Part shown: positions 11,538 through 42,287 of the stretch, piece after piece
Layout of the letters: each line of letters starts with the position of its first letter
Numbering within the stretch: the first letter of the stretch is position 1
Virus record (IMG/VR): IMGVR_UViG_3300021446_000194
Reading direction: 5' to 3' (one strand)
Length of the DNA: 59,021 bases
Origin: an uncultured virus (IMG/VR IMGVR_UViG_3300021446_000194)
Lineage: Varidnaviria > Helvetiavirae > Dividoviricota > Laserviricetes > Halopanivirales
Notes under the pieces: model-generated
The model's database searches: none
What the model was told of the DNA's origin: nothing
The model's input: the letters and a program-made list of their open reading frames with translations, nothing else
Position numbers and translations under genes: made by a program

Positions 11538-12071
11538 ATGGCGGAAGCCAAATGCATCAACGACGACTGTGACAAAGAAGAAACGTGGACACTCAGGAAG
11601 CCCGTGCCAGAGTACAGCGGCGGGGTAACCTGCCCCGAGTGCGGGTCAACCCGCACAGAGATTCACGGTGAAGAGACGGCCAACATCACCGAGGTACAGA
11701 CGGCCAACGTCCAGCAGGCACAGACACCCGCGCAGAGGGGCGGTGAAGGCCGGATGTCTGGGGCTGAAGCGACGCTCGCTCTCTTGGACGGGGACCTGGA
11801 CAGGCGCAAGCGAGCTGAAGGGGCAAGCAAGGTGCTTTCCTTCGGTCAAAACCTCCTCCAGACGGCAGCCGAGTACGCGGAACAAAAGGACGAGGCAAAA
11901 AGGCAGCAGGCACAGCGGGCGAGCGTCGAAGCTGAGACCAACTACCCGGACTGTCCCGAGTGTGGGTTCACGTTGACCGAGGACGAGATCCCCCTGGGCG
12001 AAGAAAAGGTCCGCTGTCCCGAGTGTAAGGCCGTACTCCGTGTTAACCTTCCTGAGCAACAGGAACCGTAG
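11538..12071 (+). CDS. Zinc-ribbon protein
   Basis: CxxxxC, CPECG, CPECG and CPECK. Confidence 0.8.
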   Translation: MAEAKCINDDCDKEETWTLRKPVPEYSGGVTCPECGSTRTEIHGEETANITEVQTANVQQAQTPAQRGGEGRMSGAEATLALLDGDLDRRKRAEGASKVLSFGQNLLQTAAEYAEQKDEAKRQQAQRASVEAETNYPDCPECGFTLTEDEIPLGEEKVRCPECKAVLRVNLPEQQEP

Positions 12072-12498
12072 TCGGACCGAGGCGAGATAGCTCGACCCAA
12101 CTGGGGTCGTCCAACACTTCACCCTTATCAACCCGCAAGCTTTTCTCCGTCTCGTGAGCCAACTCTGGCGATCCGAAATACACACCCTCGCAGTCCTCGC
12201 CGTAGCAAGGGTCGCCGTTTTGGGTGTCAAAGTCCACTCCAAGAAGAGCAGTAGCGCCAAACTTTGACGCCCAATACCGTAGGTGCTCCACCTCTTCCTT
12301 CGTGAAGTATACTCTTCGCTCCCCCGGACATTTCAACTCCCCGGCGATCTGCACTTCTCCAAGGCCTGCGAAAACATCAGGACTCTCACGGTCAGTCCCT
12401 CCACCGGACGCTGGCGCTCGAAGGACAGCCCACCCCTCCGAGTCGAGTTTGTTCGCAACTTTCCGCTCCGACCGATTTCCCTTTTTGTTACTCGGCAT
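12043..12498 (-). CDS. hjc: Archaeal-type Holliday junction resolvase
   Basis: KGNRSERKVA..L...GWAVLRAPASG...PDVFAG...GELK, a PD-(D/E)xK Hjc signature. Confidence 0.9.
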   Translation of the reverse strand: MPSNKKGNRSERKVANKLDSEGWAVLRAPASGGGTDRESPDVFAGLGEVQIAGELKCPGERRVYFTKEEVEHLRYWASKFGATALLGVDFDTQNGDPCYGEDCEGVYFGSPELAHETEKSLRVDKGEVLDDPSWVELSRLGPTTVPVAQEG

Positions 12499-12593
12499 AG
12501 TATTGTGCAGGCAGCCTCTCGGCCGACTATATTAGACGGACTAACGTCATGTGTTGGGTAAAGCTTTTCGCAACGGGGACAAATAGACCGGAT

Positions 12594-13088
12594 ATGACCA
12601 AACGGAAGGTTGTTACTCACAAGAGTAGAGACCACACGTACAAGTCAATGTACGACGGCGAGGTCTACCAAAGCACAGTCACCGAGCAATCGCTCGAAGT
12701 TCACTTACTCCGCGGCGTCTGCGACGGGTGTATCGACGAAGATCAAGACCAACCCTGCGTGTTCCAAGCACAACACCGAATCATGCGCGGGCAAGGCGTC
12801 GAAGACTACTGTGGCTACCACGGTCCGGAAAAACCCCACGAACGGTTCTCAGGCCCACGCGAAGACGGCCACACCATCATCGACTTCGATACAGAGTGCG
12901 GGAAGACTGTGAAGAAAGACGAAAGCGAACTTGATGAAGAGGAAGCGGAGGATGTCCAACACGGTCACTGGCCCTGTGGCGATCAGGGGTTCATTATGAT
13001 CGTCCGCGAGGACGAGGACCCGCGTGTATACTGTCGTACGCACTCTAGAGAAGCATGGACGGACATCCTCAGAAGAAACGAAAAGTGA
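12594..13088 (+). CDS. Cys/His-rich zinc-binding protein
   Basis: Two C...C...YCxxH units. Confidence 0.7.
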   Translation: MTKRKVVTHKSRDHTYKSMYDGEVYQSTVTEQSLEVHLLRGVCDGCIDEDQDQPCVFQAQHRIMRGQGVEDYCGYHGPEKPHERFSGPREDGHTIIDFDTECGKTVKKDESELDEEEAEDVQHGHWPCGDQGFIMIVREDEDPRVYCRTHSREAWTDILRRNEK

Positions 13089-13261
13089 CGGGGTCTCAAG
13101 CGGTATTAGGACCTCCCTAATAGAACCTCGGTTACCAAAGATTATAAGCGATATCCAGTAGGATGTCTCTAACAGACGAGTGGGTTCGCTCGAAGAAAGG
13201 GGACGCCTGAACACCCCTTTCTACCGCCCGAACCCACTTAAAACCACCGCAGTACGAGCCA

Positions 13262-13546
13262 ATGAACCCGGACACATCTGATGAATCCAACGAAGCCGAC
13301 CGTCGTAGCGTAGTAACCCAACAATTTCGTGTGAACGACGCCGTTGTTAGTGGCTGTCCTCTCTGTGAAGCAGAGGTTAATGTATGGATACCCTTCTCAA
13401 CAGAGTATTACCCAGAGGGGGATAATCGAGACTACCTCGGCCTGAAACGCGCTCTTTCTGATGAGCACGGACTGTCAGTCTCGGTTACGGAAGTGAAGAA
13501 CCACATCGACGGCCACGTCGGATTTAGTTTTGGGGTGCAGCAATGA
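13262..13546 (+). CDS. Small zinc-finger protein
   Basis: CPLC and HxxxH; ATGA overlap with the next gene; CTTAAAA upstream. Confidence 0.7.
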   Translation: MNPDTSDESNEADRRSVVTQQFRVNDAVVSGCPLCEAEVNVWIPFSTEYYPEGDNRDYLGLKRALSDEHGLSVSVTEVKNHIDGHVGFSFGVQQ

Positions 13547-16338
13547 GCATCTTTGACAAGATCGGCTCTCTTACCGAACGGCTACTTGATCGGGTCGGAC
13601 GAGATTACGGTAACTGTCTCAGTTGCGGAAAGCCGACACGGTCACACAGTGTCGGTGGGGGGGTCGAATGTCACGCCTGCCACACCTCCGACGAGGGGGT
13701 TCTCGTAACCGACGGAGGAGAGAACTTCACCCAGATCGCCGACGATCCCGATGCAACACGGCAAATTCGCGCATTGGCTGACATCCCCGAGTTTATGGGG
13801 ACCGACTTGGAGGACTACGATCTTTTCGAGGGCGACGTAGCCGACGTGCCCGAGATGAACGCCGAGGTGCTGATCCATCAGGGCCTTGCCGAGATCGTAG
13901 AAGACGACGACGATGATGAAGAACTGGGCGATCTCGGACTCGAACAGTTCATGGGTAGCGGACCGGGTGAGGGCGAAACGAATCCAGACCCGCATCCGAC
14001 GAACACCATGAGCCACCAGGGCAATGTGTCCCGTCAGAAGAGCCTGATACCGACTGGACAGCTCAACGCTCAGACCCACACTGAGCGAAGGGTGAACGCC
14101 CGGGAGTACGGACGCAACCCGCCGAGTACCGATGAAGTTCGTGACCGGCTTGAAGACGCGATAATGCGGGTCATGCGCGAGGAAGACAAACGTGTAGTCG
14201 AGTCGCCAACAAGCTCGGGGAAGACCCACACCGTCGCCGGCACGAGGTGGGGGGCCAGAGAGGAAATCACCGGTGGGAACCAAGTCGTTCAACTGATGCC
14301 GACCCGAGACGCGAGAGACGATGCAGCCAATACGGCAGAAGAGTACGGTGGTGACCACCTCCTTCTCTACTCCCGGGACGAGTTATGCCCGGTTGTCGCT
14401 GGTGAAGAAGACCCCGAGGAAGACGAGGACGGCAACATGGAGGGTGGGATCGTCATGGACGGCATACCGGCCTCAGAGTGGATTGAACACGTCTGTAACG
14501 ACAAAGGTGTCCACTTCTCCGTTGCCCACGACTACCTCAACAAGCACAATGACCGAGGCCTTGATCTACCCTGTACCCACGACGGCGACTGCCCCGCGAT
14601 CAAGCAGCACGAGAAACGCCGCGAGGGGGACCACCCGCTAATCATCGCTACGCACAACTTCGCCCACGTCCCAGGGCTACGCCACGGTCGGCACGTCGTG
14701 ATGGACGAGGAACCGGACTTTAGCGTCGATCTCGACACCGACCGTATCCGCCGGGCTGCCAACGCTTTTCTTACCGAAGTCGGGGCTCCGGTCCGGTCGT
14801 GGGAGTCGTTCCTCCGTTTGGCCGACTACGACGGCTTCGGCGACGACGCCTTCCGCGAGGCCGAGGAGACTGAGAAGGCAATACGCAAGACCCCGGATTA
14901 CGAGTGGTTCATCGAGGACGAAGACGCCCATACGATGATCCCCGCGATACTGCGGGCGGTTTGGACAGCCGAGGAACAGCCCAGCGGGCGTATCCGCGGG
15001 AAGACCTACCACGAGCCGCCGCGGCTGGACGCTCACGCAAACCCCGACGATGAGATGTGGAACCGCGAGTGGGTCACTGTCGTGCTCGATCAGCAGAACG
15101 AGGTGCGGAACGTCCGCTCGGTGCCGGACTTTAACTCCTGCAAGTCGCTGGTAGGGCTGGACGCTCACCCGTCAATGCCGCTCTGGCAGGTGAATACGTG
15201 GCCGGACATGCAGAAGCTCCGTATCCTCGACCCGGAAGAACGCCGCCTCTGGCGCGAGCACGAGCGAGGGCTCCGTATCGTGCAAGTCGGCGATGCTACC
15301 CGCCCACTCGGGAAGTCGAATTACTACGACAGCCGGGGGATCACCTGCCTGATGGAGCACCTCCGCGACGAGTACGGCGAGAAGTTCCGTACCGCTATCA
15401 CCACCAAGACGGTGAAGAATATGCTTCGGCAGGACATGGAGATCGCCGGTGTCGAAAGGCCCGAGTTGATGCACTTCGGGAACACGAAGTCGAAGAACGA
15501 CTTTGCCGGCGAAGAAGTCGGGTTGGTCAACGGGTGCCAGGACCCCGGAGACGGGTACGTGCTTGACCTTCTCGCGGAAGTCGGTGCCGACGCCATGCCC
15601 GAGAAGGCAGATGTGTGCTGTGAGAAGTGTGGTGACCGTGAGGAAGCCCCAGAAGAACCGGGTCCGGGCTGTCCGGCCTGTGCCGGCACGGGTATGGCTC
15701 GACAGCACGGTCGCGGGTTCACCGGCGAGGACGCCGAGACCGCTGAGGCGATCCTCAACAGCGTCCGGCAGGCCGAGACGGCGCAGGCGGCTGGCCGCTG
15801 GGCTCGTCGCGCCGATCACTCCGACGATCACGCGACCGTCTTCGTCAGAACGGACGTACTGCCCTCGCACATGGTCGACGTGGTCGTTCCGGGCGTCGTC
15901 TGGACGTTCACGGACAAGCAGCGGGAGGTGGTCGACTCCCTCCGCGAAAGCGTTGAACCGAAGCGTGCACTGAAGGTCGCCGAGGAAGCCGGTGTCTCGA
16001 AGGAGTCAGTACGCCGGACGTTCAACCGGCTCGCTCCGGACGACCCCGACGACACACCTGATGGGGTTGGTTCCCGGGGGTACATCCACGCCTTTGAGAA
16101 GGCTGGGAAACACGGTGCAACGCTGTACGCGGACAACGGAATGCCGAACAACGGTGTTGCTGACATCTCGCTGGAGGAGGAAACCGCCACGAGTCACGTT
16201 TGGGATAACTATACGTGGTCCGTGGCGATCCGCGACCCACACGACCCGCCACAGCATGTCGACAGCACCGTCGAGACTCCACAGCAGGGGGAGTCGCTGG
16301 ACGAGTGGAGTGATGCGGCGACAGAACCAGGCGGGTAA
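13543..16338 (+). CDS. Replication protein: Zn ribbon, GINS B-domain, SF2-like helicase core, C-terminal wHTH (reminiscent of haloarchaeal RepH-type proteins)
   Basis: Walker A SPTSSGKT, Walker B VVMDEEP, motif VI QAAGRWAR, HTH ALKVAEEAGVSKESVRRTF; GINS-B pattern IRALADIPEFMGTDLEDYDL.EGDV..VP..NAEVLI..GLAE. Confidence 0.75.
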   Translation: MSIFDKIGSLTERLLDRVGRDYGNCLSCGKPTRSHSVGGGVECHACHTSDEGVLVTDGGENFTQIADDPDATRQIRALADIPEFMGTDLEDYDLFEGDVADVPEMNAEVLIHQGLAEIVEDDDDDEELGDLGLEQFMGSGPGEGETNPDPHPTNTMSHQGNVSRQKSLIPTGQLNAQTHTERRVNAREYGRNPPSTDEVRDRLEDAIMRVMREEDKRVVESPTSSGKTHTVAGTRWGAREEITGGNQVVQLMPTRDARDDAANTAEEYGGDHLLLYSRDELCPVVAGEEDPEEDEDGNMEGGIVMDGIPASEWIEHVCNDKGVHFSVAHDYLNKHNDRGLDLPCTHDGDCPAIKQHEKRREGDHPLIIATHNFAHVPGLRHGRHVVMDEEPDFSVDLDTDRIRRAANAFLTEVGAPVRSWESFLRLADYDGFGDDAFREAEETEKAIRKTPDYEWFIEDEDAHTMIPAILRAVWTAEEQPSGRIRGKTYHEPPRLDAHANPDDEMWNREWVTVVLDQQNEVRNVRSVPDFNSCKSLVGLDAHPSMPLWQVNTWPDMQKLRILDPEERRLWREHERGLRIVQVGDATRPLGKSNYYDSRGITCLMEHLRDEYGEKFRTAITTKTVKNMLRQDMEIAGVERPELMHFGNTKSKNDFAGEEVGLVNGCQDPGDGYVLDLLAEVGADAMPEKADVCCEKCGDREEAPEEPGPGCPACAGTGMARQHGRGFTGEDAETAEAILNSVRQAETAQAAGRWARRADHSDDHATVFVRTDVLPSHMVDVVVPGVVWTFTDKQREVVDSLRESVEPKRALKVAEEAGVSKESVRRTFNRLAPDDPDDTPDGVGSRGYIHAFEKAGKHGATLYADNGMPNNGVADISLEEETATSHVWDNYTWSVAIRDPHDPPQHVDSTVETPQQGESLDEWSDAATEPGG

Positions 16339-16590
16339 CCCCGGTCGACACCGATAGTCGCCCGCCTCTGTTCAGCCGCGAGGCCAGCAACAGCCAAACC
16401 CAGTCTCACTCTCACGAACGGTTACTACCCTCCCCTCGGGTCAGCGGGAACCACCCTGCACTTACGCAGCCCTCACAGAAAGTGCCAAAGTACCCCCATT
16501 TCCTCTATCTACGCGAGTGTCCACAAGTGAGGGTTCGTGAGACCCGGCTGGAGGACAGCCTTAAAGTTGTAGCTACCCGAACCGGATTGT

Positions 16591-18312
16591 ATGCCGTCGC
16601 TACCAGATGAGAAGAAGCGAGCAATCCGTGATATTCGGGAGTACGGATTCTCTAAGGTCAAGACCGCTGACGCGCTGGGAGTCAGTCAGGGGAGCGTCGC
16701 CAAGTACGAACCAGACGACGTGGATGGGTACGACGAGAGCCTCGAACCCGACGCCGACGCGGCGATTGATGCACTCTCGGAAGACCTCGTCCCGGCAAAC
16801 GTGCTGGACCCCGAGTGGGTCCCGGACGACGTAGACCCGGCCACCGGAGAGAGCTTCACTGGGGACCACCCGAAGCAGACCCCGCTGGCGGACAACTCCA
16901 CCCGAAAGCTCCGGGTGCAGGACGACTACACGAACGTCACGCCCGGTGACTTTCTCCGTAAGTTCTTCGAGGAGTTCGAGGTCGGTGTCCGCGAGAGCTT
17001 CGTTCGGATGCAGTCCCGGCGAGCGGAACGGCGTGGGCAGCTCCCTGACGAAGAAAAAATGCGCTCCGACCTGAACGAGATGTCATCGGGGATCTCGAAC
17101 GACACGGAGACGCGGTATATCGCCGAGGAGTACTGGGCTGAGGCTCAGCAGTACCTTAGCGAGACCGACATCGAGGTCAACTCCCGCAGCCCCCAGCAGA
17201 ACCAGAGCGGTGGCGGGGAGGGAGACTTCGTCGGCGTCGGGGAGAACGAACAGCAGGACGGGATGTGGATGCAGATGCCCGACGGGACCTACCAGTACGG
17301 TACCTACCAGCAGGCCCCGAACGGAGCGCAGATGTTCCAGCCTATGCAGCCGCCCGCGGGCGCGTCTCCTCCGGGGCAGCAGCAGATGGGGAGGCAGATG
17401 CAGGGGCAACCTCGACAACCTCAGCAGTCCCAGCAGCAGGGTGTCCCCGACCCCCAGATCGAGGAGATCCGAAGCGAACTGCGGGACCTCCGGCGAGAGG
17501 CCCAGAGCGAGAGTGGGTCCAGTCTGAAAGACCAAGTCGAGGAGTTCGCCGAGCTACAGAGCACCATCGAGTCGCTTTCAGGCGAGGAGCAAGGTGCTGC
17601 GAACGATGAAGCTATCTCCGTGCTTCGGAACGAACTTCGAGGGCTCCGGAGTGAGATACAGAGCGACGCCGGGCAGGCGGGCCCCAGTTCGTCAAAGGAG
17701 GCGGCCATGCAGAAGGCGCTTCAGTCGGATGATGTTGACGCCAACTCCCTGCTGGAGATAGCTCAGCAAATGGACGACGACAAGGACCCAGAAGTCCGCA
17801 AGAAGGAGTTGGAACTTCAGCAGGAAAAGCAGCGGATGGAGATGAAGCGAGATCGGACTGAGAACCTACTCTCGGGGGCTGAGAAGATGGTCGAACGCCT
17901 GGGTACAGGTATCGGCGAAGCTCTCTCCGCCGGTGGCGAGGGTAAGCAGCAGGGACAGCAGCAGAACGGGAGCGGTGGCGCGAGGAAGATGGGCGGCGGC
18001 GCGCAGCAGGGCGCGACGCAGGCGGACCAAGCCCCATCGAACGCTCGCGCCAACGGTAGCGGGGGGAACAACCCGATCCAGACGATGGACTGTGGCAACT
18101 GCGGTGAAGAGACCACGGTAGATACGCGAACTCCTGGCTATGAGTGCGAGGAGTGTCAGCACGCCGTCGAGCCCTGCCCTGAGTGTCACTCGCCGATTGA
18201 CATCCCACCCCTCGATGAAGTTGATACGGAAGCCGGAGAGGGTCCTCCGACGGTTGGGTGCAGCGAGTGTGGTGAAGTGCTTGAGATCGCCCCGGCAGAA
18301 CCAACCGCATAA
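16591..18312 (+). CDS. HTH, Gln-rich, coiled-coil and Zn-ribbon protein
   Basis: SKVKTADALGVSQGSVAKY helix-turn-helix; Q/P-rich middle; heptads; four CxxC motifs at the C-terminus. Confidence 0.8.
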   Translation: MPSLPDEKKRAIRDIREYGFSKVKTADALGVSQGSVAKYEPDDVDGYDESLEPDADAAIDALSEDLVPANVLDPEWVPDDVDPATGESFTGDHPKQTPLADNSTRKLRVQDDYTNVTPGDFLRKFFEEFEVGVRESFVRMQSRRAERRGQLPDEEKMRSDLNEMSSGISNDTETRYIAEEYWAEAQQYLSETDIEVNSRSPQQNQSGGGEGDFVGVGENEQQDGMWMQMPDGTYQYGTYQQAPNGAQMFQPMQPPAGASPPGQQQMGRQMQGQPRQPQQSQQQGVPDPQIEEIRSELRDLRREAQSESGSSLKDQVEEFAELQSTIESLSGEEQGAANDEAISVLRNELRGLRSEIQSDAGQAGPSSSKEAAMQKALQSDDVDANSLLEIAQQMDDDKDPEVRKKELELQQEKQRMEMKRDRTENLLSGAEKMVERLGTGIGEALSAGGEGKQQGQQQNGSGGARKMGGGAQQGATQADQAPSNARANGSGGNNPIQTMDCGNCGEETTVDTRTPGYECEECQHAVEPCPECHSPIDIPPLDEVDTEAGEGPPTVGCSECGEVLEIAPAEPTA

Positions 18313-18314
18313 CC

Positions 18315-18776
18315 ATGTCAGGTCATAGCGGGAAGGAAGCCGAATCCGGGTGGCAAGACCGGATCAGCCAGATCACCAGGATGCTGAAGTTCGGCGGAAA
18401 AGCGGTCGCCGGGCCGATGGTCAGGAAGTTCATCCGTAACCGTGTCGTGGCAATTCTCTCGGAAAAGGAACCTCAGATCCTCCAGAACTACATCCTGACG
18501 GACTATCCTCTCGTGGAGAACAATACTCCACAGAAGGTCAGAAACGCTCTGGGAAACATCGGCCCGCAGTTCGAGGAGGAGATCCAGCAGTTAGTAACGC
18601 CTGAGAACGTTCTCGACTGGTTAGAGTACCCCGAGGAATGGCTCGACGTATCGCAAAACCCACAGCAGGCGCAGGACCTTCGGGAATGCCACCAGATCAT
18701 TAAGAATACACCCGGGGGAGTGGAGTGGCTGGAAGATCAATGCCTCGCCGTCTGGCAGATAGCTGGCGTTCTCTGA
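18315..18776 (+). CDS. Hypothetical helical protein
   Basis: Tightly coupled to the upstream ORF. Confidence 0.75.
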   Translation: MSGHSGKEAESGWQDRISQITRMLKFGGKAVAGPMVRKFIRNRVVAILSEKEPQILQNYILTDYPLVENNTPQKVRNALGNIGPQFEEEIQQLVTPENVLDWLEYPEEWLDVSQNPQQAQDLRECHQIIKNTPGGVEWLEDQCLAVWQIAGVL

Positions 18777-18819
18777 ACCAGCGACACGTTTACGTTTTCG
18801 GCGGGTTCAATCACCCTAC

Positions 18820-19062
18820 ATGGCAGTCCTCGGCTTACAGCAAGACAAACGCGGGGGCGGGTACACAATACCGACCGAAACCGCGACGACGGCATTCGGA
18901 TTGATTAGCGGGATTGGTGGAGGGCTCGCCCAGATACTTGTATCGCGCAGTCTTTCGCAACGCAGTAGTGACCGGATTACACTCCGAGACCTGGCAGTCC
19001 CATTAGGGCTGTCGATCTTGGGGACTGTGGCAGCGGCCACACTGGTCCCCGGCGGCGACTGA
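18820..19062 (+). CDS. Small two-helix membrane protein
   Basis: Two hydrophobic segments. Confidence 0.7.
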   Translation: MAVLGLQQDKRGGGYTIPTETATTAFGLISGIGGGLAQILVSRSLSQRSSDRITLRDLAVPLGLSILGTVAAATLVPGGD

Positions 19063-19075
19063 CCTACACATAGCC

Positions 19076-19621
19076 ATGAGAAACCAGACGGCAGCAGAAC
19101 TGATCGAGGGTATCGCACAGGCGGGGGTGGCGCTCACCAAGGAAGTTTACACTCGAAGGCAGGAGCGCAAGCAGATGGAGCGTGAGGCGGAGATGAGGCG
19201 GGAGATGATCGAGTTGGAGGCGGACACGTCCAAGAGTAGCGGGGAGGAGTCCGCACCGGAAACGGTGGAGTCTGTGCTCGACCAAGCGGTCGAGACCAGC
19301 GAGAGGTACGACGACCTGCTGAGGAAGGCAGAAAGCAAAGAGGACTGCCAACTCTGCCGGGCGCTGATCTCGCAAGCCCGGGAGAAGCCTCTCCCCCAGC
19401 AGCGGAAGCTGATCCCGGAGCTACGAGAGTTCATCTCGAAGATAGAGGACGACGCGCCGAAGGACGAGTTGATCGAGGCTATCAACCAGAACGCGGCCCT
19501 GAAAGGGCTTCTACAAGAGCATATGAGCGCCGTGCAGGAAGCCGCTGACCCGGGGTCCGGTGTTCCTGCCGGCGACAAGTCTTCTTCGCGCCGGCGTTCT
19601 CTCTCTCGGGGAGACGGATGA
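19076..19621 (+). CDS. Coiled-coil protein with CxxC
   Basis: Helical acidic ORF containing CQLC. Confidence 0.75.
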   Translation: MRNQTAAELIEGIAQAGVALTKEVYTRRQERKQMEREAEMRREMIELEADTSKSSGEESAPETVESVLDQAVETSERYDDLLRKAESKEDCQLCRALISQAREKPLPQQRKLIPELREFISKIEDDAPKDELIEAINQNAALKGLLQEHMSAVQEAADPGSGVPAGDKSSSRRRSLSRGDG

Positions 19622-19764
19622 AGTGGCGAATCTGGCGCTACGTAGTCGGTCGGAAAAGGGTGGAGTGTCCGTACTGCGGTAAGACAAAAACGGTGTGGTC
19701 GATCATCGGTTCGGCTTGGTGGATGTCCCACCACGTGCCGGACTGCTCTGAGAGTGTATCCTGA
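19618..19764 (+). CDS. Small zinc-finger protein (48 aa, MKWRIWRY...CPYCG...HH)
   Basis: Translated by hand; ATGA overlap. Confidence 0.5.
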   Translation: MKWRIWRYVVGRKRVECPYCGKTKTVWSIIGSAWWMSHHVPDCSESVS

Positions 19765-19802
19765 CCCGGAGAGTTTTGGGCCTCCGCCCGGTACGTAGGC
19801 CC

Positions 19803-20159
19803 ATGAGTCAGCGAACACTTACAGATCGAGGCGGGTCCAGTACGGTCGACACGGACGAAGACCGCTGTGGGGCTGCGGTAATGGCCGCAATGGAGGCGAT
19901 CTCGGACCATTGCGGGGCTGATGGTGTCCCTCGGCAGCTTTCCAACGGGATGGTCACGATGGTCCCGAAAGAAGAGATGGAGATGCTGGAAAACATGGCG
20001 CCGGGCGACATGACTGACGAGGACATCGAGATGATGATGGAGGACTCGCCGTGGCTGGATGATTGGACGCACGGAATATGCACGAGTGCGGGCCACGATG
20101 AAGGGACGGGAGCGTACCGGGAGTGCCGTATCGACTTCGCCCGCGAGGCGCTGGAGTGA
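19803..20159 (+). CDS. Hypothetical protein
   Basis: Acidic Met-rich ORF. Confidence 0.7.
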   Translation: MSQRTLTDRGGSSTVDTDEDRCGAAVMAAMEAISDHCGADGVPRQLSNGMVTMVPKEEMEMLENMAPGDMTDEDIEMMMEDSPWLDDWTHGICTSAGHDEGTGAYRECRIDFAREALE

Positions 20160-20230
20160 TCGCGCTCCGGAAATAGAAGCCACCTTTTAACATCTCCTGC
20201 CGTGTTAGAACTACGCGAGGTAGTACCACT

Positions 20231-20416
20231 ATGGTAATGGACGAATCCGAGGCAGTCTCGAAGTACGAGGACGGTATCAACGAGGTCGGGATCGACGCCT
20301 ACCGGCGTGCATCGCAGGAGAACACGGCGTCTGGCGCGGCCCAGATCCTCGAAGACGCGAAGCGCGACAGCATGGACGCTTCGTCCTTCGCAGACAACTA
20401 CCGCGACGGCTACTGA
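20231..20416 (+). CDS. Small helical protein (61 aa)
   Basis: Own CTTTTAAC promoter, biased codons, T-tract downstream. Confidence 0.75.
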   Translation: MVMDESEAVSKYEDGINEVGIDAYRRASQENTASGAAQILEDAKRDSMDASSFADNYRDGY

Positions 20417-20865
20417 AGTCGGCCTGTCGGGGTAGTCCTGCGGACCCATCCCCTCTTTTTGGGTGGGTGCTTTCAGCAGAATAGTTACAACAGAGGCGTT
20501 CTAACCGGACGTATATGTCCACCAGCGACGGCGAGGGGATGTCGATCTCACCGGAAGAGAGGGCTGTAATCCTGCGTATGCGTCAGTCACGGCGAGCGGG
20601 AAACGCAATTTTCAACTACGCGATCAAGTTCTCTGATGACGCAAAGGTCGACCCGGAGGCGTCGCCGTACCGAAGGTAACCGTCAGTCGTCCTGGTCGTC
20701 TCCGAGTGCTTCTTGGATCGCCTCGGCTGCCTCCATGCAGCCGCCCCCGTCCCCCAGCCCTTCGAGGTGGCTCCGGTCAATGTGCTCCGTTTCAGGTTCA
20801 TCAGACATGATGTATTCTGGTTGGGCGGCCCACGTTTTTAGGGTTCCCCCAATATACGGCTTTAC

Positions 20866-23800
20866 ATGGTCTTTCCCACGTTTGAAGTGAAGGTGTCAAA
20901 CCAAGTGCTCCGCCCCACCGTCTCCGCTGCCGATCAGATAACCGACGAAGCGGTGTACGAGGTGTCCGAGAAGGTTCTGAAGACGGAAGTTGTCGACGCC
21001 GGCCAGAACACGTACGCGGAGACGGTCACGGAGTTGGGGGCCGAGGAGGAAGTCAATGTTGAGATGCCGGGGCAGTTCGGAGTGTCAACCGCCAGTCTGA
21101 GCAGTGCACTGAATGACCTGAGCAAGAGACAGGATGTAATCCTGTCCGGGGAGGCGGTGAGCGCAGAGATTGAGGTGGTCGACCCTCAGAGCGGTGATGT
21201 TGTGTCATCCCTCGGGATGAAAGACCCCGAAGAGTTGCGTGACACGCCCGAGCCCCCGCAGATCAACTGGGACGCGGAAGTCGAAATGAACGGTGGCGAC
21301 TTCCGTGAGGTGCACCTCGCGGCGAAGAAGGTCTCTAACAATCTTACTCTGGGGGTCGCGGACAACCCCGAACGGGGAGAGACTGGTAAGGCTCTGCTGG
21401 CCTACGCTGACGGGGACACAGACGACATCGGATTCTACCCGGACTTCGAGTTTACCGGGATCGGGTCCCCGCCTGGGGACGTTGGTGCCATCTACAGCCT
21501 GGACCTTCTTGGGGACCTGAGAAATTCGATTGATAAGCCTTCATCGACGGCTCTACGGCTGCGTTTCAGTGGTGTTGAGTTTCCTGTTGAGGCGAGCTTT
21601 AGTATTGGCCCCGAATCTGAGACTAGCGTCCGATACATCGTCAGTCCGAGACTCAAGCAAACCGACTGGGAGCTGACCGATGACCTCGGTGCTATCGACC
21701 CCTCAAGCTACGGGTTTTCCGAGGTCGGGTTCCGGCTCGGCACCGACGGTGAGCATGGCCGCGCCTTGTTCGATCTGATGGGCATGTACGCCGACGAGTA
21801 CCGGATCATCGCCCGCGAGACGGGGATCGAGAGTGCGTCTATAGACCCAGCTAACGTCGGGCTGATCTCGACACAGGCCGACCCCAGCTACTTCGACATC
21901 TACGAGGAAGTGGCTGGGTTCCCCCAGCAGCAGGTTGGTATTGCGTCACGGAACATCGAGGAGTTGCTGAAGCGGTTTAACAAGAGGGACGACTTCGAGC
22001 TTGCGGTGTCGTCCAATCGTCGGTACGTGGCGCTCCAGCACCCATTGTTCACCGCCCGCCTCGCAACAATAGACCCGGATGCAATCAGGGCCGACCCCAG
22101 CCTGCCGGATCTGGAACTTACCTCTGAGGCGCAGGTGCCCTCGGACGAGTTGGTTAATACGCTGTCCCCGATGGTCGGCAAGGATAGAGTTGCTGGGTAC
22201 ATCGTCGGGAACGGTGAAGCGTGGTTGGTCGCCGATGCTTTCAGCGGTGGGTCCGCGTCCCAATTGCAGACAAGCTCAGTTAACGGGCGCGCGTTCACGG
22301 CGCTGTCGGGTGAATATCTTGGGAAGATGATCGACGCCATTCCAGGCATTCCCGGTGGTTCCGTGAGAATGAGAGCCGGAGTGGAGCTTCCCGTTGCGTT
22401 CGAGTACCAGACCGGCGGCGGCGATCTCACGGCTGTCTCCACAATTGCCCCACGCCAAATAACGGACGACTTCCCCGAGAAGATCCGCGATATGAAGGAG
22501 GCGATCCCAAACGGTCGGGATGTCCTGAACTGGATAGACCCGGCGAACCCCGACGACTGGGACAACCCTGATTTCTCGGTGTCCGCATTCTCGGGCGCCA
22601 AGATAGAGCCGCTTTCGGAGCGCGTTCGGGCTGAGCGTCTCCAGTCCTACCCCGTGGAGCTTGATGTCGAGTTCACCCATTTCGGGGAGTCCGACGAGGC
22701 GTGGTCCTACGAGGTGGATGAAATGGAAGTCACCGGGAACAGAGGAAGGAAGCGAGACACCACAGTCTACCTCGAACTGGAAGACGGCGAAGACTTCGGC
22801 GCTTCCGACAACGCCATCCGGAGTGCGTTGGAGGATGTGGGCGACGCCTTCGACTTCAGCCTGATCGACACGGGTGAGCGCGTCGCGCAGGCGACGTTCA
22901 GCTCTGAAGACGAGTACACAGTCGAGCTACTGAACGTCCAGCCAAATACCAATCACGCGATCACCACCTCCGACGGGTACCGGATTCGCAGTCTCACCCG
23001 GGACGACAACGAGTACATCTACACCAGCGCCCCGGACGAAACGCCCGCAGAGGGGCGGGTCGCCTTTCGGGCCGTCGAGGACCCGCAGGGGAGCACGTTC
23101 GGATTCTATCTCGACATGATCGACAACGACGATGTTGAGGCGCGAGCGAGCGTTACTGGGCTGCCTTCTATTAGCCAAGCCTACGGGGCTATGGTAGAGT
23201 GGATTAGGAACCACACGTTAGAAGATGCCGTCGAGACCGCTGGCGGCGAAGTGACCGTCTCCGACCGCGAGGTGCGCGACCAGCTATCGGAGTTGGCTGA
23301 CACGTACGTCGACTACAACATGGAGGAGCGGCCGGGGAGTGGCGTCGATGAAGGGGAGTTCTATGCAGCCCTCGTCGGGAAACTTAACGTCCTTCCTGAC
23401 GCTTCCCACCGGGCAGACATCAGCGTCCGAACCCCGACTGAGCAGCGCCCTACATACAAGGTCGACTGGACGGTATCCATCATGCCAAGTCGCCTGGGTG
23501 GGCTGGTAGACAGTCAGCACCTCGGCGATAATGACATTGGGGAGACCGACGACAAGGCTGACGTTCCCGGGATGGTGGAGGAGGCGATCCGTACCCTCAG
23601 CGGCTACAGTCCATACCTCGCTCGACGCGACAACGAGGATGTCCCGCCTCAGAACGCGCGTAACCTCCCGGGATTCCGCGAGAACGACATCCGGAGCTAC
23701 GTCGACGCATCGCTCCCGGTGCCGAAAGAAGAACTTGCTTCTGAGATCGCGGCGGACGCCGACGGTCCGCCGGTCGAACTAGAGGAGGTGTCGCAGGTGG

Positions 23801-26800
23801 GCCCATCCCGCGCGGAGGTGTTGGAAGAAGACGGTGTGTTCGACGTGATTGACGTGGCGGTCCTCCTGTCGTCCACCAAGACGAGCTTCCTCTCTACGAC
23901 GCTGGTCAATCTTCCCGAGACACCACGGGAAAGCATACAGGAGGCAGCAGCAAAAGTGTGGGCTCGGTACATCTGGCCGAAGCGTGAGCTACCCGACGGG
24001 TATGATCGTATCGGGTCAGGCGACGCGGAGCCCCCAGAAACCGACAGCGATCCCGTGCTGGAGGAAGATACGTCTCCGGAACCGCCGGACATCGACGATC
24101 TCCCCTCTGCGTTCGGCGACTGGGAAGCGACGACGATGGACGACGCAAGCCCGGTGTACGCCCGCGAGTTTGAGATCAACGGCGTCGAGGTGCAGTCTCA
24201 GGTGTCTGTTCAGCCAGCCAACGATGGTGAGACGTGGGAGGTTATCCACAGCATTGCCACGTTCGGCGATGATGGATCTGAGGTAAACTCGTTCACCGTC
24301 GACACAGGGTACGAGTCGGTGGAGATGGCTGTGCCCTTCCTCGCTACCTACCTTGGGGACGAGGCTCTCGAAGACATCGCCGAGAAGATGCCCTCGGTTG
24401 AGGCTCCCCCGGACGATGAAGATGAAGAGGAGGCTGCCATGGAACCCGACTCTGACCCTGACCCGTCTGAAACGCCTGAGCAGCCCCCGGAGCCGTCTGA
24501 CGGCGGCGGAGACGGCGGCGACAATGTGTTTCCCATCGAGGCTGAAGTGACGCTGGTTTTGGATGACGGCGAGGCGGTGGTCGACGTGGAGGCGTCGAAC
24601 CTCGACGCCGTCGATGAGGAGACGTTGGGCGACTTCTTCGACCTCATGGAGATCGTCGCCGACCCCACGTTCCGGGACCCACCGGATTTCATCGCGCGCG
24701 CTGTGTTCGAGTCGCCGATGGAGTACGACTTCGTGGAGTACAACGAAGCGACGGAAGGGCTAGACCCCGAAGACTTCGACCCGCCCGGTGGGTTCGAGAC
24801 CACTACCGACGAGGGCGTGACCAAGCCCGACATGGAGCCGCTGGAGACGTGGCGTGCTCCGGGGGGTGAGCAGGTAGAGATATATCGAACTACGGTTTAT
24901 ATCAACCCGCCCCTCAGCGACTTCACTGTCGAGGCCGACATCCCGCCGGAGACGGCGCAAGAAGTGGTCCGGAACATCGAGGGGTACACGCTGCTCAACG
25001 AGCGAGAAGAGCAAGAGCCCTCGCAACCGCAGGACCAGGACTCCCAGGAACCCCCGGAACCGTCACGCAGTGAAGGCACCGACGAGTCAGAGACTGAGGA
25101 AAGACCTACCCCGAAGGCGGACGAACCGGATGTTACTGTGAGCGAACGCGAAGACGAAAAGTCCGTTCGAGGCGTCCCGGTGAGCACGATCCCGGATGTG
25201 CTCGAACCCGTCCTTCCGGGCGTCGAGGTTGAGGTGGACGTGACAGGGAACGTCGTGGAGCTTCGGGAGAACGTTGTCCCCGACGCGCAGGACCTCTTCG
25301 ACGGAGAGCCTGCGGTCGTAACCGCCCAGACAGGCGAGGGCAGCGACCTCTTCGAGCAGGCTGTGGTAGCGTACAACGCTGCTGTCGATACTGATCCCCT
25401 CGACGTGGAGGCGGTCAACGACGCAAGACGCAACGCTGATCTCGACATCCCCCTGCTCGATGAATCCCCGGCGGTGAGTGAAAGCGAAGAGCCGGAGCCC
25501 GAACCTGTTGGCGGCGAAGACCTGCCGGTCACTGACCAGGATCGGGTTGAGCTACAGGAACTTGCTGAGGTCCTTAACAACGAGCAGATTCCGGGAGAAA
25601 CCCGGGCGGAGGAGGCCAGCGAGACCGTCGACAGCATCTTGCAGTCGGCATATCCCAACACCATCGAAGACTCGCGTGTTGATCTGGACTTCGGCCGTGG
25701 CGGCGGTCTTCGTGCGTTGGTTCTGACAGCCCAACTTACCTCTCAGAAGCGGGACGACATCGCTGGTAGGTCTATCTGGGCTGACCCCGGTCCGCAGGGA
25801 GGGACTGTCGTCCAGTTCCGGATACTCGGCGATCCCAACAACCCCGTCTCTCTGATCCAGTCTTTCGAGAAGGTGATGGACGGGCTGGATGAGACACGGC
25901 CAGGGAACCAGCGCCTCAAAGACAAGCTCGACCACATCGAGGACTTCACCACGTTCAAGTTCGTCCGAGGGAACGTCGATCTTGACAAGTCGTTCATCAG
26001 CGCCCCGGAAATGCGGGCGCTACTCCCCGAACTGGCTGAAGAGATACAGAGGAGTTTCGACGCCCACCTCCAGAACATCGACGCTGCGTACTACGCTGCT
26101 CAGAAGGTACACGAGGTAGACACGGGCGGAGACATCCGCGGCCGTTTGGAGCAGTCCGTGGGCGACTTCCCATCTCCCGGTTCGCGTGCAGAGATGCTCG
26201 AAAAGGCGTTGGGCGCGCTGGACTCTGGCGACTTCGAGCCCGGTGTGTTCTTCCGTCGGTACTACGACTCCATCGCCCGTGACACGCCTTCGGATATCTG
26301 GGAGGAGCGCGGTATCGTCACCGACGACGATGAAGAGGAAGAGTCCGAACCGGAGCCCGAACCGGAGTCGGAACCAGAACCGGACTCCACTGAACGCGAA
26401 CCTGGACCCGAACCCGAGTCCGAGCCGTCCCCGGGCGGTGAAGAGCCGACCCAGCAGGGTGTCGAGGAGAAGGATACCTCATTCTCCGAGATGTCTGAGG
26501 TGGTGACAGACCTCTCTGCTGTGGAAGAAGAGTTGGAGGAAGTGGTCGGCAACACCAGACTCGGCGACATCGGCGACCCCACAGTCGCCGACGAAGCACG
26601 GGAGGCGCTGACCGAAGTGCAGGAGATTAAGGGTGTGTTGAGTGAGAAGTCGCTGGGGGAGGTCCAGCCCTCGGATATCACGCAAGCCCGCTTCGCCGTC
26701 GATATCGGACAGGCTGCTGTCGAGAACATGGAGACCGCCGCCGAAGAGTCAGCGGACCCCGGGCCTGAACCCCAGCCTGAGCCCACTCCCGAGCCCCAAC

Positions 26801-27950: not shown

Positions 27951-28223
27951 GTGGATATGAAGGGATCAGAGCCAGCAGGACATAGCGAACGGAAGGTGCA
28001 GGCCCTCGCTCTACTCCGCGCACACGGGCCGCTGACGGTGGCTGAGGTCGCCGATGCTGCTGGGGTCACTAAGACCAACATGGAGAACGTGCTCATGCGC
28101 TGTCGTCGGTCTGGATACGTCGAGAGTGAGGGTGGAGAGTTCCGGCCGGGGCAGGGTCAACAGCCCGCGGAGTACGATGTGACCAGCCGGGGCGTGGCGC
28201 GGCTCCAGTACGAGGGCCGGTGA
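27951..28223 (+). CDS. Winged-helix transcription regulator
   Basis: GPLTVAEVADAAGVTKTNMENVL...GYVE...YDVTSRG. Confidence 0.85.
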   Translation: MDMKGSEPAGHSERKVQALALLRAHGPLTVAEVADAAGVTKTNMENVLMRCRRSGYVESEGGEFRPGQGQQPAEYDVTSRGVARLQYEGR

Positions 28224-29615: not shown

Positions 29616-29679
29616 CAACCCCGCTGTGCTGGCTCGCGCTGGCACTGCGGCCTTCCCAGCACCATGCTGGGGGTGTGCT

Positions 29680-34176: not shown

Positions 34177-34752
34177 ATGCCAGAATACGGGATCTACCTC
34201 GATGTAGACAGTGACGGCGTGTACCTATCCGCGCCTGACCGCTACACGGGGATAACAGCAGCACAGCACGCGACCTACGTCCTCTCCGAGATCGTGGGCA
34301 GCCGCCACGGGGGAAACGCGCCCTACGCGCGGATGCTCATGTCGGCATCCCAGTGGCTCCACGACGCCAGGCAGTACGACTCCGCCCGGGGGATCGTCTA
34401 CTCGGATGAGGGGAGTGACGAACACCCACCGGCTCGGGGGCAGGTGGCGGACGTGTTCCTGATCCTAGCGGGAGCACACGCTGCCGACACTTTCGGACGG
34501 ACTGGGACAAAAAAGATGGAGGAGGGTGTTTCCTTCGCCAACGATCTGGCCGAACGCCTTGGCGACGAGATCGGGACGACGCCGATCAACCACGGACCAG
34601 CGGTTCAAGAGCCGGAGCGTATACACCACTATAAAGGCCCGTCATCGTTCATGCAGCAGCGGTTCTGTACCGACTGTGGCGGCGAGGCGACGGGTGAGCT
34701 CCCCGAGGGGGGAAAGTGCCCGTTCTGCGAGGAGAGTGGGACGCTGATCTGA
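34177..34752 (+). CDS. Hypothetical protein with C-terminal Zn ribbon
   Basis: CTDC...CPFC. Confidence 0.75.
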   Translation: MPEYGIYLDVDSDGVYLSAPDRYTGITAAQHATYVLSEIVGSRHGGNAPYARMLMSASQWLHDARQYDSARGIVYSDEGSDEHPPARGQVADVFLILAGAHAADTFGRTGTKKMEEGVSFANDLAERLGDEIGTTPINHGPAVQEPERIHHYKGPSSFMQQRFCTDCGGEATGELPEGGKCPFCEESGTLI

Positions 34753-34802
34753 CCACCCGAGGATCACACCTTGGGAGGTTCTATCCGCCACGCGGCGGAG
34801 GT

Positions 34803-35828
34803 ATGACCATGGAATGGAACCCGTCCGCTAAGTACGAGTTGTACCTGCATTGGATAGACGACATCCTCACGGACGAGAAGCGTACCGTTCGTGACGTTTA
34901 CTACGCACTCGAATCCCGGGGCTTCCCGGACGAGTGCGCGGAGCAGGGGTACGACTTCAAGTATCGGTTTGTCAAGAGAGCGGTCAAGAAAGGCAGGAGG
35001 GCGGGGTATATCGACCCGTCGATGATCGTTGACACATCCCGGCGGGCCGTCGAAATCCCCAGCGAGGGGTACGACGACCCAGTGGAGTTCGCCGGGCGAA
35101 TAATGTCGACGGTAGCGAGCGGCTACAATGAGAACTTCTGGCGGGACCAGGACCATTACGTCGAGGTATGGCTCGAAAAGCAGTCGTTGGCGTCGGTGTT
35201 TGCGCCGATCTGCGCCGAACATAACGTCCGACTTGAAGCCACCCGCGGCGACTGGTCCGACAGCAAGGTCTATGAGGCAGCACACCGACTGCTTGACAAG
35301 CTGAACGCGGGCAAGCAGGTGCGCGTGGTCTACTGGGGGGACTTCAACCCCAGCGGGTTCCACGCACCCGTCAGCGTCCAACAGACGCTCAAGCACTACG
35401 GCCTCGATCTGGGGCCGCGGCAGCAGGACGAGCCCCCGTCGCGGTATTTCGACATCTGGCCGCAGAGTGAGCCGTCGTCGTGGAGCGGGCACGAAGGCGC
35501 CGACATCATGTTCGAGCGCGCGGGGCTAAACCTCGAACACATCAAGCGGTACAGTCTGCCTGAAAACCCCAACCCTTCGTCTTCGGACAAGGACCGCCAG
35601 CTACGCGAGCGGTTCCGGGAGCACGTTTCGGAGGGGCGAGACGTGAACGTCGAGCTTAACGCCCTCAAGGAGTTCCACCGCGACGATCTCGAAGCAGAGA
35701 TCAGGAATGGGATAACGCAGTATATCGACACCACGCAGCGCGCGACCACCGAAGAGCGTGTGGGCGAGCGCCAAGAGGCGATTCAGGAGGCGTTCAACGT
35801 GGACAGAGACGCGCTGAGCAGCCTGTAG
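34803..35828 (+). CDS. Topoisomerase VI A/Spo11-like protein (Mini-A type; WHD plus TOPRIM)
   Basis: TVRDVYY (catalytic Tyr context), VEVWLEK, YWGDFNPSG, VELNAL. Confidence 0.8.
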   Translation: MTMEWNPSAKYELYLHWIDDILTDEKRTVRDVYYALESRGFPDECAEQGYDFKYRFVKRAVKKGRRAGYIDPSMIVDTSRRAVEIPSEGYDDPVEFAGRIMSTVASGYNENFWRDQDHYVEVWLEKQSLASVFAPICAEHNVRLEATRGDWSDSKVYEAAHRLLDKLNAGKQVRVVYWGDFNPSGFHAPVSVQQTLKHYGLDLGPRQQDEPPSRYFDIWPQSEPSSWSGHEGADIMFERAGLNLEHIKRYSLPENPNPSSSDKDRQLRERFREHVSEGRDVNVELNALKEFHRDDLEAEIRNGITQYIDTTQRATTEERVGERQEAIQEAFNVDRDALSSL

Positions 35829-39984: not shown

Positions 39985-39991
39985 TTTGGCT

Positions 39992-40129: not shown

Positions 40130-40141
40130 GTATGTTTAAGT

Positions 40142-40471
40142 ATGACTGAGTATGAGATATTCGAGTGCGACGGCTGCGGCGACAGGCACGGCCACAAGAC
40201 AGAGATGCAAGAGATCCTGCTGATCGCCGAGTCCGGCCACTTCGACGAGCCCGAGACGCTGACCACGCACCTCTGCACCACCTGTACGACGAAAGAGATC
40301 GACAGCGCCCTCGAAAAAGTCGAGGCGTTCGGCGTCGACAGGTTCCGTGGAGAGGTGAAGGCGGCCATCTTGAACGGTGGTGATCTTGTCGGCGTCCCGC
40401 AGATGTACGGTAATGAAACGTTCCGTGATGTGCGCGAGGCGGTGGAGCAGGTCGAACAGCGGTTGATGTAG
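40142..40471 (+). CDS. Zinc-finger protein
   Basis: CDGC...HLCTTC. Confidence 0.7.
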   Translation: MTEYEIFECDGCGDRHGHKTEMQEILLIAESGHFDEPETLTTHLCTTCTTKEIDSALEKVEAFGVDRFRGEVKAAILNGGDLVGVPQMYGNETFRDVREAVEQVEQRLM

Positions 40472-40526
40472 ACTGTACGGGCCGTTGCGGCTGTCAGAAG
40501 CCGCTTCGGCATGAGGTGAAACCTGT

Positions 40527-41087
40527 ATGGCAACACGGCTTGATTGGCCGTCGAGTATCGACCGGACTCCGCCCGAGCAGCGGAAAAGCGGGTCCAAGTT
40601 CAGCGTTATGTTCTCCGTCACTCGCGGTGACTTGACCGACGAGGTGGAACGGCTTGGAGCCGACAAATGGCGAATCGACCACATCACCGGCTCCGGCGGC
40701 GACCCTGGCGTTGTCCTCCGCTTCACCCGGGACGGGACTGACCACGCGGTCGCCTGCGACGGGTACGAGACCAAATCGGCGAATCTCCGGGAGCTGTACC
40801 TCTGGGTAGAAGAGACCCGTATGCGGGAGAAACGGAAGGCAGAGGGGGCGAGCGACGCCTTCGCTGCTGCGCGACTTCCATCTGGGGACGGCCCGAGCGA
40901 GGACGACCCGCTGGCGAACATCGACCCCTACGAGGTGCTCGGCGTGCAGCCCAGCGCCTCCGAGTCCGTCGTAGAGGCTGTTGTCAGGCAGCGCAAAGGC
41001 GAAGCGCATCCGGATAGCGGTGGGAGCCAACTGGAGCTACAGAAGGTGGAGAAGGCTGAAGAGATGATCCTCAACGGCCAGGGATGA
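40527..41087 (+). CDS. J-domain (DnaJ-like) protein
   Basis: DPYEVLGV...AHPDSGGS at the C-terminus. Confidence 0.85.
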   Translation: MATRLDWPSSIDRTPPEQRKSGSKFSVMFSVTRGDLTDEVERLGADKWRIDHITGSGGDPGVVLRFTRDGTDHAVACDGYETKSANLRELYLWVEETRMREKRKAEGASDAFAAARLPSGDGPSEDDPLANIDPYEVLGVQPSASESVVEAVVRQRKGEAHPDSGGSQLELQKVEKAEEMILNGQG

Positions 41088-41299
41088 GCGTCGAGGACCC
41101 ACGCCTGTGCCCCGAGTGCCGCGAACCACGGCAGGGGCTTGTCTGTCAATGTGGGTGCGATCTCCGCGAGGTGGATGTCGTTTACTGCGCGGAGTGTTCA
41201 AAGCCGGCGACGAAAGAAGCGGCTGACCGCCAGACGTGGCAGGGGTCGTCTGTGGCACACGCCTCGAAGAGCGGATACTTCTGTCCAAACTGTCAGTAG
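41084..41299 (+). CDS. Cys-rich zinc-finger protein
   Basis: CPEC, CQC, CAEC and CPNC. Confidence 0.65.
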   Translation: MSVEDPRLCPECREPRQGLVCQCGCDLREVDVVYCAECSKPATKEAADRQTWQGSSVAHASKSGYFCPNCQ

Positions 41300-41348
41300 A
41301 TACTGTCGGAGCGCCTTTCACTTGGCGCCCCGTCACTTGGATTCAGCG

Positions 41349-42287
41349 ATGGCTGATCGGTATGACTATCGGATTGACCGGGATGTGGCCGACACGATCA
41401 AACAGCGAGTGAATGATCCGTCGGTCAACGCGCTTGACTGGGCGTGGCAGTACGTCGCACCGACGATGTCAGAGCGACGCCGCGCCCGGACGGCTACGCT
41501 ACTCTCTTTGGCGTCCGAACCCGACAGGAATGGCGTCCGGGGACGGATTCATGCCTTGTACCCCGGACCGGGAGGAACCGGAAAGACGGTGCTTCGAGAC
41601 TGGGTGAAAAATACCTTCGACTGCGCCTACGGCGTTGGTCCCGGATCGTCGGACACCGGGCTGCGCTACAACGCGAACGTGAACAAACCCGGAAAACTCC
41701 ACATGGCCGACGGGGGAGTGCTCTGTGTTGAGGAGTTCGACAAGTTCGACCGCGACGAATGGGAAGCAACCTACGAGTCCATGTCGGACGGCTACTTCGA
41801 GGTGGATAAAGGCGGCGTCGACGCCGAGATCGACGCCGAGACGCGGATCATCGCGGTGTGCAACGAGACACGGCCGTTTTCCCAACCACTACTCTCCCGA
41901 TTCGACTTCATCGTGGAGATGGACGAGTACGATGCAGCGGAGACCATCACCGTCGGCGAGGACATCACTGACCAGTTCATTTCGGCGTTCATCAAAGACG
42001 AAGACGGTGCCGCCCGGCCGTTCCTGCCGCAATACCTCTCCTACATACAGGGGTTCCGGCCGGGGCTCACGGATGACTTCGCCGGGCAGGTGAAGCAGTG
42101 TCTCCGACGGCTGGTCCACGAGGAGGACATGGTCGGGGACATCCGCGGGAAGGAGGCGTACCTACGTATCGCATACACGGCTGCGAAGCTGGATATGCGG
42201 GACGTAGAGGTGGAGGACTGGGTCCGAGCAGTCGATCTCGTCCATCCAGACATCGACGCCGCGGGGCTCTACTCAGACTTCCTTTGA
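41349..42287 (+). CDS. MCM-family AAA+ ATPase lacking the N-terminal domain
   Basis: RGRIHALYPGPGGTGKT, GKLHMADGGVLCVEEFDK, LLSRFDF, sensor-2 helix IRGKEAYLRIA. Confidence 0.85.
   Translation: MADRYDYRIDRDVADTIKQRVNDPSVNALDWAWQYVAPTMSERRRARTATLLSLASEPDRNGVRGRIHALYPGPGGTGKTVLRDWVKNTFDCAYGVGPGSSDTGLRYNANVNKPGKLHMADGGVLCVEEFDKFDRDEWEATYESMSDGYFEVDKGGVDAEIDAETRIIAVCNETRPFSQPLLSRFDFIVEMDEYDAAETITVGEDITDQFISAFIKDEDGAARPFLPQYLSYIQGFRPGLTDDFAGQVKQCLRRLVHEEDMVGDIRGKEAYLRIAYTAAKLDMRDVEVEDWVRAVDLVHPDIDAAGLYSDFL

Follow-up and report, generated by a model that had tools for sequence, protein, structure and literature searches.

The window analysed in this work is the whole stretch of 59,021 nucleotides recorded as IMGVR_UViG_3300021446_000194, from an uncultured virus, and it carries five replication-like genes that encode a Rep protein with a GINS B-domain, a giant protein with two PCNA units, an MCM-like AAA+ ATPase, a topoisomerase VI (Topo VI) A-like protein and an Hjc-type Holliday junction resolvase. 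We conclude that these genes come from separate sources rather than forming one kit, and that in the Rep family a primase-polymerase domain has been swapped for a GINS B-domain, an observation that is new here. Rep likely recruits the host DNA polymerase D (PolD) through this domain, given that Gins51C, the C-terminal domain of archaeal Gins51, binds PolD and GAN in Thermococcus. The overall explanation that we favour, with moderate confidence, is that the five genes are real, of separate origin, and act as follows. Replication would depend on Rep, which is predicted to be an origin-binding helicase; its captured GINS B-domain would bring in PolD, replacing the primase-polymerase domain found in most of its relatives. 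The giant protein, likely carried in the virion, would form an open clamp arc early on and bind partners of PCNA; and the Topo VI-A-like (Mini-A), Hjc and AAA+ genes would be accessory. The function of viral helicases and clamps that stand alone is posed as an open question in PMC4889955. For archaeal viruses without a polymerase, a 45-residue GINS domain on Rep would be a specific answer, easily tested in Haloferax, to the question of how they make use of the host replisome; if true, the domain would be a viral mimic of the point where helicase and polymerase are coupled, which is conserved between archaea and eukaryotes.

The B-domain of Rep matches the Pfam family Gins51_C (PF22090) with E 1.7e-7 and 31.3 bits, above the cut-off of 27, so that the GINS-B fusion proposed by an earlier reading of the letters and open reading frames (ORFs) alone, hereafter the sequence-only reading, holds. 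Taken alone, it aligns to Thermococcus kodakarensis (Tko) Gins51C with E 0.33, and Rep F84 and M105 align with Tko V148 and V170. According to the accessible part of PMC9023282, Tko Gins51C alone binds the N-terminal domain of the PolD subunit DP1 (DP1N) and GAN, both at once, and either V148D or V170D abolishes DP1N binding. Haloarchaeal DP1 carries a matching N-terminal domain, and each of the 13 GINS forms of the Rep family has a hydrophobic residue opposite Tko V148. Rep keeps the same domain as archaeal Gins51, as that protein is presented in the same source, with its key hydrophobic position; however, Gins51 is part of the GINS tetramer on MCM, whereas the Rep domain is detached from the A-domain and fused to a viral helicase. 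No match to the tetramer-forming A-domain was found in Rep, in which the B-domain comes after only 74 residues and is followed by an acidic linker. In the remainder of Rep the Walker A/B and QxxGRxxR motifs are conserved, the DEAD match is weak (E 0.003), and no AEP-type (archaeo-eukaryotic primase) catalytic domain was detected with a primase-polymerase hidden Markov model (HMM). A GINS-B/Rep-type fusion did not turn up in literature searches at listing level; AEP-helicase fusions in general are the subject of PMC5862659, whose available text does not mention haloarchaea, and GINS is not mentioned in the available parts of that paper or of PMC4889955. The fusion is a good candidate for a recruiting handle.

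The search for Rep relatives returned 135 proteins, and our counts cover the 120 listed, window Rep included. HMMs built here detect a primase-polymerase domain in 67 of them and a GINS B-domain in 13; 40 have neither and none has both. The B-domain occupies the place of the primase-polymerase domain, and none of the 80 domain-bearing proteins has the two together; among the 40 with neither, some are fragments or have other primase types and others look complete. A Pfam cross-check of 49 family members plus the Rep of one relative locus (L001, see below), taking the top five families per protein, found Gins51_C in 8 of the 13 GINS forms and Prim-Pol in 2 among the 50 proteins scanned. The Reps of haloarchaeal proviruses share the helicase core and the winged helix with the window protein at 40-55% identity, but have a primase-polymerase domain where the window Rep has the GINS B-domain. 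In a FastTree phylogeny of 108 helicase cores, from which 12 proteins not spanning the core had been dropped beforehand, the 13 GINS forms fall at 6-7 places, and three of them group with six primase-polymerase forms in a clade that has full support. Monophyly of the GINS forms was rejected, since the forced constraint (a quick FastTree tree) costs 351 log-likelihood units, with a p value of 8e-6 in the approximately unbiased (AU) test with 2000 replicates.

The B-domains of the other 12 GINS forms are 45-65% identical to host GinS C-termini (best among 26 hosts), and that of the window is 40% identical to the host C-termini and 51% to a second type, which in a scan of 401 genomes was represented by extra copies in four low-GC loci. 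These relationships rest on pairwise identities. Because its identity is 51% to the second type versus 40% to the host type, the window B-domain looks to have been captured separately from the other 12. The loci with the extra copies (L064, L066, L067 and also L065) have a GC content of 49-53%; three of the copies lie in ORFs of 70-141 aa, with a Pfam score above that of the host gene, and it is possible that they are stand-alone viral GINS-B proteins. In 6 of the 7 loci read, Rep lies just upstream of putative terminase and portal genes, labels that we assigned from motifs. Because of this placement Rep is, to judge from its relatives, a mobile module common to this element and tailed proviruses.

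As the sequence-only reading had stated, no recognisable polymerase or primase was found: searches of 60 ORFs against Pfam and PHROGs and of 81 against NCBIfam gave no match to either. Most ORFs belong to no family, so that there may be a hidden fold among them. The primase-polymerase HMM built from the Rep family likewise returned nothing from the window ORFs (best E 0.05), whereas it matches the relative L001 with E 1.7e-46. A helicase without a polymerase and PCNA without a polymerase are described viral states, the former a common one (PMC4889955 and 10.1101/2025.02.15.638363), the genome of the halovirus HCIV-1 likewise has no polymerase, and use of the host replication machinery has already been inferred for that virus in the part of PMC4958249 that is available. 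Dependence on the host replisome is ordinary.

The double PCNA announced by the sequence-only reading in the giant protein is confirmed by three approaches that agree: phmmer relates both units to Haloferax volcanii PCNA, NF002222 matches in two stretches with E 1.6e-45, and an AlphaFold model of the tandem, built from 18 sequences, has a predicted local distance difference test score (pLDDT) of 83. The model shows the two-domain PCNA fold, with template modelling (TM) scores of 0.89-0.90 against Archaeoglobus fulgidus and H. volcanii PCNA, and the clamp domains in it can be superposed on the crescent of three domains in bacterial beta clamps (TM by target 0.76, 428 columns); the Foldseek matches listed for it are all clamps. 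Among the best 150 of 360 matches examined by HMM, two full PCNA units are present in 19 proteins, the window protein included, and none has three. The tandem has four clamp domains, as against six in the PCNA ring. Across the 19 proteins the score of the turn motif of the C-terminal domain, which is the outer domain in unit 2 and has lost the motif there, is -0.15 in unit 2, 1.47 in unit 1 and 1.74 in single PCNAs, and several relatives carry an insert of 80-110 residues in the outer domain of unit 1. The motifs of the pocket for the PCNA-interacting protein (PIP) box of partners are preserved in both units; a check of 64 window genes brought up no strict PIP box. In the model the two units pack as an arc, and the data suggest an open clamp arc with a diverged outer end; this is only suggested because the strand pairing in the model is backbone-based. 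The breadth of the tandem-PCNA family (19 proteins, of which one was described before) and its arc design are new here, and the family makes the role of the clamp domains of HCIV-1 VP1 testable in a culturable virus. Single PCNA genes are present in phiCh1, phiH and HFTV1. The conserved region of the giant also includes a helix-hairpin-helix-like motif.

Two PCNA domains in VP1, a virion protein of HCIV-1 (Alphasphaerolipovirus), were published in 2016 (PMC4958249, as far as its text is available). This protein is giant and acidic with two N-terminal PCNA domains, as is the window protein, and the two are 27% identical over 424 aa (E 2e-30), in the tandem region only; the C-terminal ~200 aa common to VP1 of HCIV-1, SH1, PH1 and HHIV-2 were not found in the window giant. 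SH1 and HHIV-2 VP1 are giant mosaic proteins that lack the PCNA unit, and no segment of the window giant matched them, profile searches included, although three members of the tandem-PCNA family (P0154, P0167 and P0168) share segments with them. VP1 is called a vertex protein in the available text of PMC5332951. By analogy with HCIV-1 VP1, the window giant is probably a mosaic protein carried in the virion. Residues 1076-1170 of the giant were considered by eye to resemble the anti-BREX (bacteriophage exclusion) segment of HHIV-2 VP1, a candidate that was discarded when profile searches gave no support. The features are listed in Table 1.

Table 1. Features of the window discussed in the text
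Feature	Position	Strand	Remarks
Hjc-type Holliday junction resolvase, 151 aa	12043..12498	-	Pfam PF01870, E 1.5e-19
Rep, 931 aa	13543..16338	+	Zn-finger-like start, GINS B-domain, predicted superfamily 2 (SF2)-like helicase, winged helix
GINS B-domain (Gins51_C) in Rep	13765..13896	+	residues 75-118
Seven-gene block (573, 153, 80, 181, 127, 61, 54 aa)	16591..20679	+	L001 order kept, 36-51% identity
Giant acidic protein, 2153 aa, VP1-like	20866..27327	+	tandem PCNA, conserved to residue ~1045, variable tail
PCNA unit 1	20866..21660	+	residues 1-265
PCNA unit 2	21718..22467	+	residues 285-534; C-terminal domain without the conserved turn motif
Small winged-helix protein	27951..28223	+	also adjoins the giant gene in L001
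Mini-A-type Topo VI-A-like protein	34716..35828	+	phrog_6247, E 1.3e-62; start likely ~34803
MCM-like AAA+ ATPase, 312 aa	41349..42287	+	Pfam, E 9e-19; without N-terminal domain
55-nt repeat	58967..59021		identical to 1-55; assembly overlap of circular molecule

The sequence-only reading had also named an Hjc, a Topo VI-A-like protein and an AAA+-only MCM, and all three stand: the first by Pfam and NCBIfam matches above cut-off (NF040854, 76 bits against 70), the second by its phrog_6247 match and the third by its Pfam AAA+ match and its 312 aa without an N-terminal domain. The Hjc is an ordinary one. The Topo VI-A-like protein has matches in 76 phage records, the best being HCIV-1 ORF35 at 61%. 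The accessible text of PMC7671362 presents Mini-A as a short viral stand-alone Topo VI-A homologue with an RxxYY tyrosine and no B subunit, and the window protein is likewise; no gene for a Topo VI B subunit was found in the window. From the Mini-A metal site (E plus DxDxxG) it keeps the E and has DxN for DxD, as in HCIV-1 ORF35, and in place of the xWELDAL box it reads VELNAL, nearer the Topo VIII form. Overall, the protein fits the Mini-A type. The AAA+ protein likely starts at the ATG at 41349, where its homologues begin, and a search that covered proteins of 171-546 aa gave 15 close homologues of 264-338 aa with 49-61% identity. Walker A, Walker B and the arginine finger are invariant in 16 of the 16 proteins, the helix-2 insert is ~7 residues shorter than in full MCM, the MCM-type presensor hairpin is kept, and the N-terminal OB/Zn domain of MCM is not in the window protein. 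The MCM helicases of archaeal viruses (PMC4889955, available text) have an MCM-type AAA+ core with intact motifs, as has the window protein, which differs from them in lacking the N-terminal domain, in the short helix-2 insert and in its length of ~310 aa; nothing relevant on N-terminally truncated viral MCM turned up in a literature search. Judged on these alignments, the AAA+-only MCM-like proteins are an intact, conserved family.

The five replication-like genes are spread, unclustered, over 30 kb and two strands. L001 is the sole relative with context: the nine genes after its Rep are homologous to those of the window and in the same order, giant included, and the seven-gene block sits between Rep and the giant gene in both. 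Its Rep is 22% identical to that of the window and carries a primase-polymerase domain. We also inspected 48 loci that contain a Rep relative, 32 of them from genomes and 16 viral, with 10-kb flanks, many of them shorter, at a cut-off of E 1e-5. Homologues of the giant or Hjc were found in none of the 48 within the fetched flanks, nor were homologues of Mini-A or the AAA+ protein, both of which lie 18-25 kb from Rep in the window, beyond the 10-kb reach. HCIV-1 has no match to Rep, AAA+ or Hjc. The first protein of the seven-gene block (573 aa, 16591-18312) has a helix-turn-helix, a Gln-rich region, a coiled coil and Zn ribbons, and its residues ~110-190 form a highly conserved segment common with L001.

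These distributions bear on the proposal of the sequence-only reading that Rep, tandem PCNA, AAA+, Mini-A and Hjc jointly rewire or poison the host replisome; spelled out further, the tandem would close a hybrid ring with one host PCNA and the AAA+ protein would enter host MCM hexamers. Dependence on the host is supported, but a single co-selected kit is not, given that the L001 giant coexists with its own primase-polymerase, that the 48 Rep-locus flanks show no giant or Hjc homologue, and that HCIV-1 has no match to three of the parts; the distribution is patchy, although decay of the parts was not seen. All parts are in fact intact and conserved, the modelled clamp domains keep a ring-like geometry on the beta-clamp crescent, and tandem PCNA and Mini-A co-occur in HCIV-1. 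Yet the outer domain of unit 2 lacks the turn motif across the 19 proteins, unit 1 has inserts in several relatives, and the AAA+ protein keeps its catalytic residues, unlike a dead poison subunit, and we regard joint rewiring or poisoning as quite improbable. It is unlikely, too, that the AAA+ protein is a genome-packaging or assembly ATPase rather than a replication protein. The window gave no match to a terminase, a portal or an A32-like ATPase, a credible Walker A occurs among real ORFs in Rep and the AAA+ protein alone, and the latter lacks the MCM N-terminal domain and has the short insert; nevertheless, its gene is surrounded by small genes of early type, at a distance from the opposite-strand structural block, and the MCM-type presensor hairpin is retained.

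The main role of the giant could instead be in anti-defence, the protein entering together with the genome and its PCNA units being decoys for clamp-dependent host nucleases rather than replication factors, a possibility to which we give limited weight. Type V BREX is inhibited by VP1 of SH1 and of HHIV-2, and virions of HHIV-2 form in the absence of VP1 (10.64898/2026.04.28.721311); segments of these proteins recur in P0154, P0167 and P0168, and both PCNA units keep the partner-pocket motifs. Against this, SH1 and HHIV-2 VP1 have no PCNA unit and match no segment of the window giant. A decoy or passenger role for the GINS B-domain, in which it would titrate GAN or PolD off host forks or be a neutral remnant, seems doubtful: relatives with neither domain (40 of 120) and the small stand-alone B-domain ORFs in the mobile-looking loci L064, L066 and L067 would fit it, but the strict exclusion with primase-polymerase (0 of 80) and the recurrence at the same position on the helicase fit functional replacement. 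Several points do weigh against recruitment of PolD by Rep in an element of separately acquired genes. With some of the relatives that have neither domain complete, Rep may work without a handle and GINS-B may be optional; the scatter on the tree may reflect module recombination rather than repeated selection; the giant shares the PCNA tandem alone with HCIV-1 VP1, its place in the virion being argued by analogy; and HCIV-1 and the window both combine tandem PCNA with Mini-A while SH1 and HHIV-2 have neither, a hint that the two are linked. Recruitment of PolD by Rep nonetheless remains our preferred explanation, and only tentatively do we extend it to a bolder one: haloarchaeal viruses would repeatedly have swapped the primase-polymerase for a stolen GINS-B, a viral SF2-like helicase would replace MCM and couple directly to host PolD and GAN, and in this new group of circular viruses a virion-delivered arc of two-thirds of a PCNA ring would be a loader-independent clamp or a decoy.

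The window is a complete circular element and likely a tailless haloarchaeal virus. A 55-nt copy of the window start at its end leaves a circular molecule of 58,966 bp, and the proteome is acidic. A tyrosine recombinase, a methyltransferase, a subtilase and one PHROG virion protein are also encoded (Pfam, PHROGs). Sphaerolipoviridae have linear genomes with inverted terminal repeats, whereas the window is circular; HCIV-1 has a linear genome of 31 kb whose VP4/VP7 capsid proteins and A32-type ATPase have no match in the window, and tblastn with the HCIV-1, HHIV-2 and SH1 genes for VP4, VP7 and the A32-like ATPase gave no match. Caudoviricetes have a terminase, a portal and an HK97 capsid protein; none was matched in Pfam, PHROGs or NCBIfam, divergent forms being possible. 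Near-identical DNA occurs in halite metagenome runs, all from one study; contigs of run X1 tile positions 10001-29900 with almost no differences, and X1 may be the source sample. Viral contigs scanned with the giant, a 270-aa protein, the 573-aa protein and the AAA+ family gave no close relative and one weak match, and genome contigs scanned with the giant gave no relative. The 270-aa protein (5105-5947) is a capsid candidate for which an Atlas search gave no lead. A minus-strand block (244-5947 and 46311-58943) is likely structural and has no recognisable capsid or packaging gene; 54727-55644 and 57000-57914 match HHIV-2 ORF26 weakly. The element with this structural block may represent an undescribed virus group.

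Other features of the window are noted here. The sequence CTAG is depleted throughout (15 observed, ~78 expected). The subtilase-family protease (10035-11138, E 9e-43) adjoins a glycosyltransferase (8589-9323) and is unusual cargo for a halovirus, and the tyrosine recombinase lies at 50829-51806. A 252-aa protein (49906-50664) with no family match has an HxH motif, read by eye, that is presumably JAB/MPN-like. Between 28780 and 33540 about 11 small genes each follow a ~60-nt two-hairpin repeat that ends just before the ATG; its 8 copies show compensatory change in 5 of 14 predicted pairs, and the arrangement looks like a cassette array or a shared leader. Finally, a 476-aa protein (36566-37996) shares 34% identity with proteins of HRTV-7 and HSTV-2 that are labelled hypothetical.

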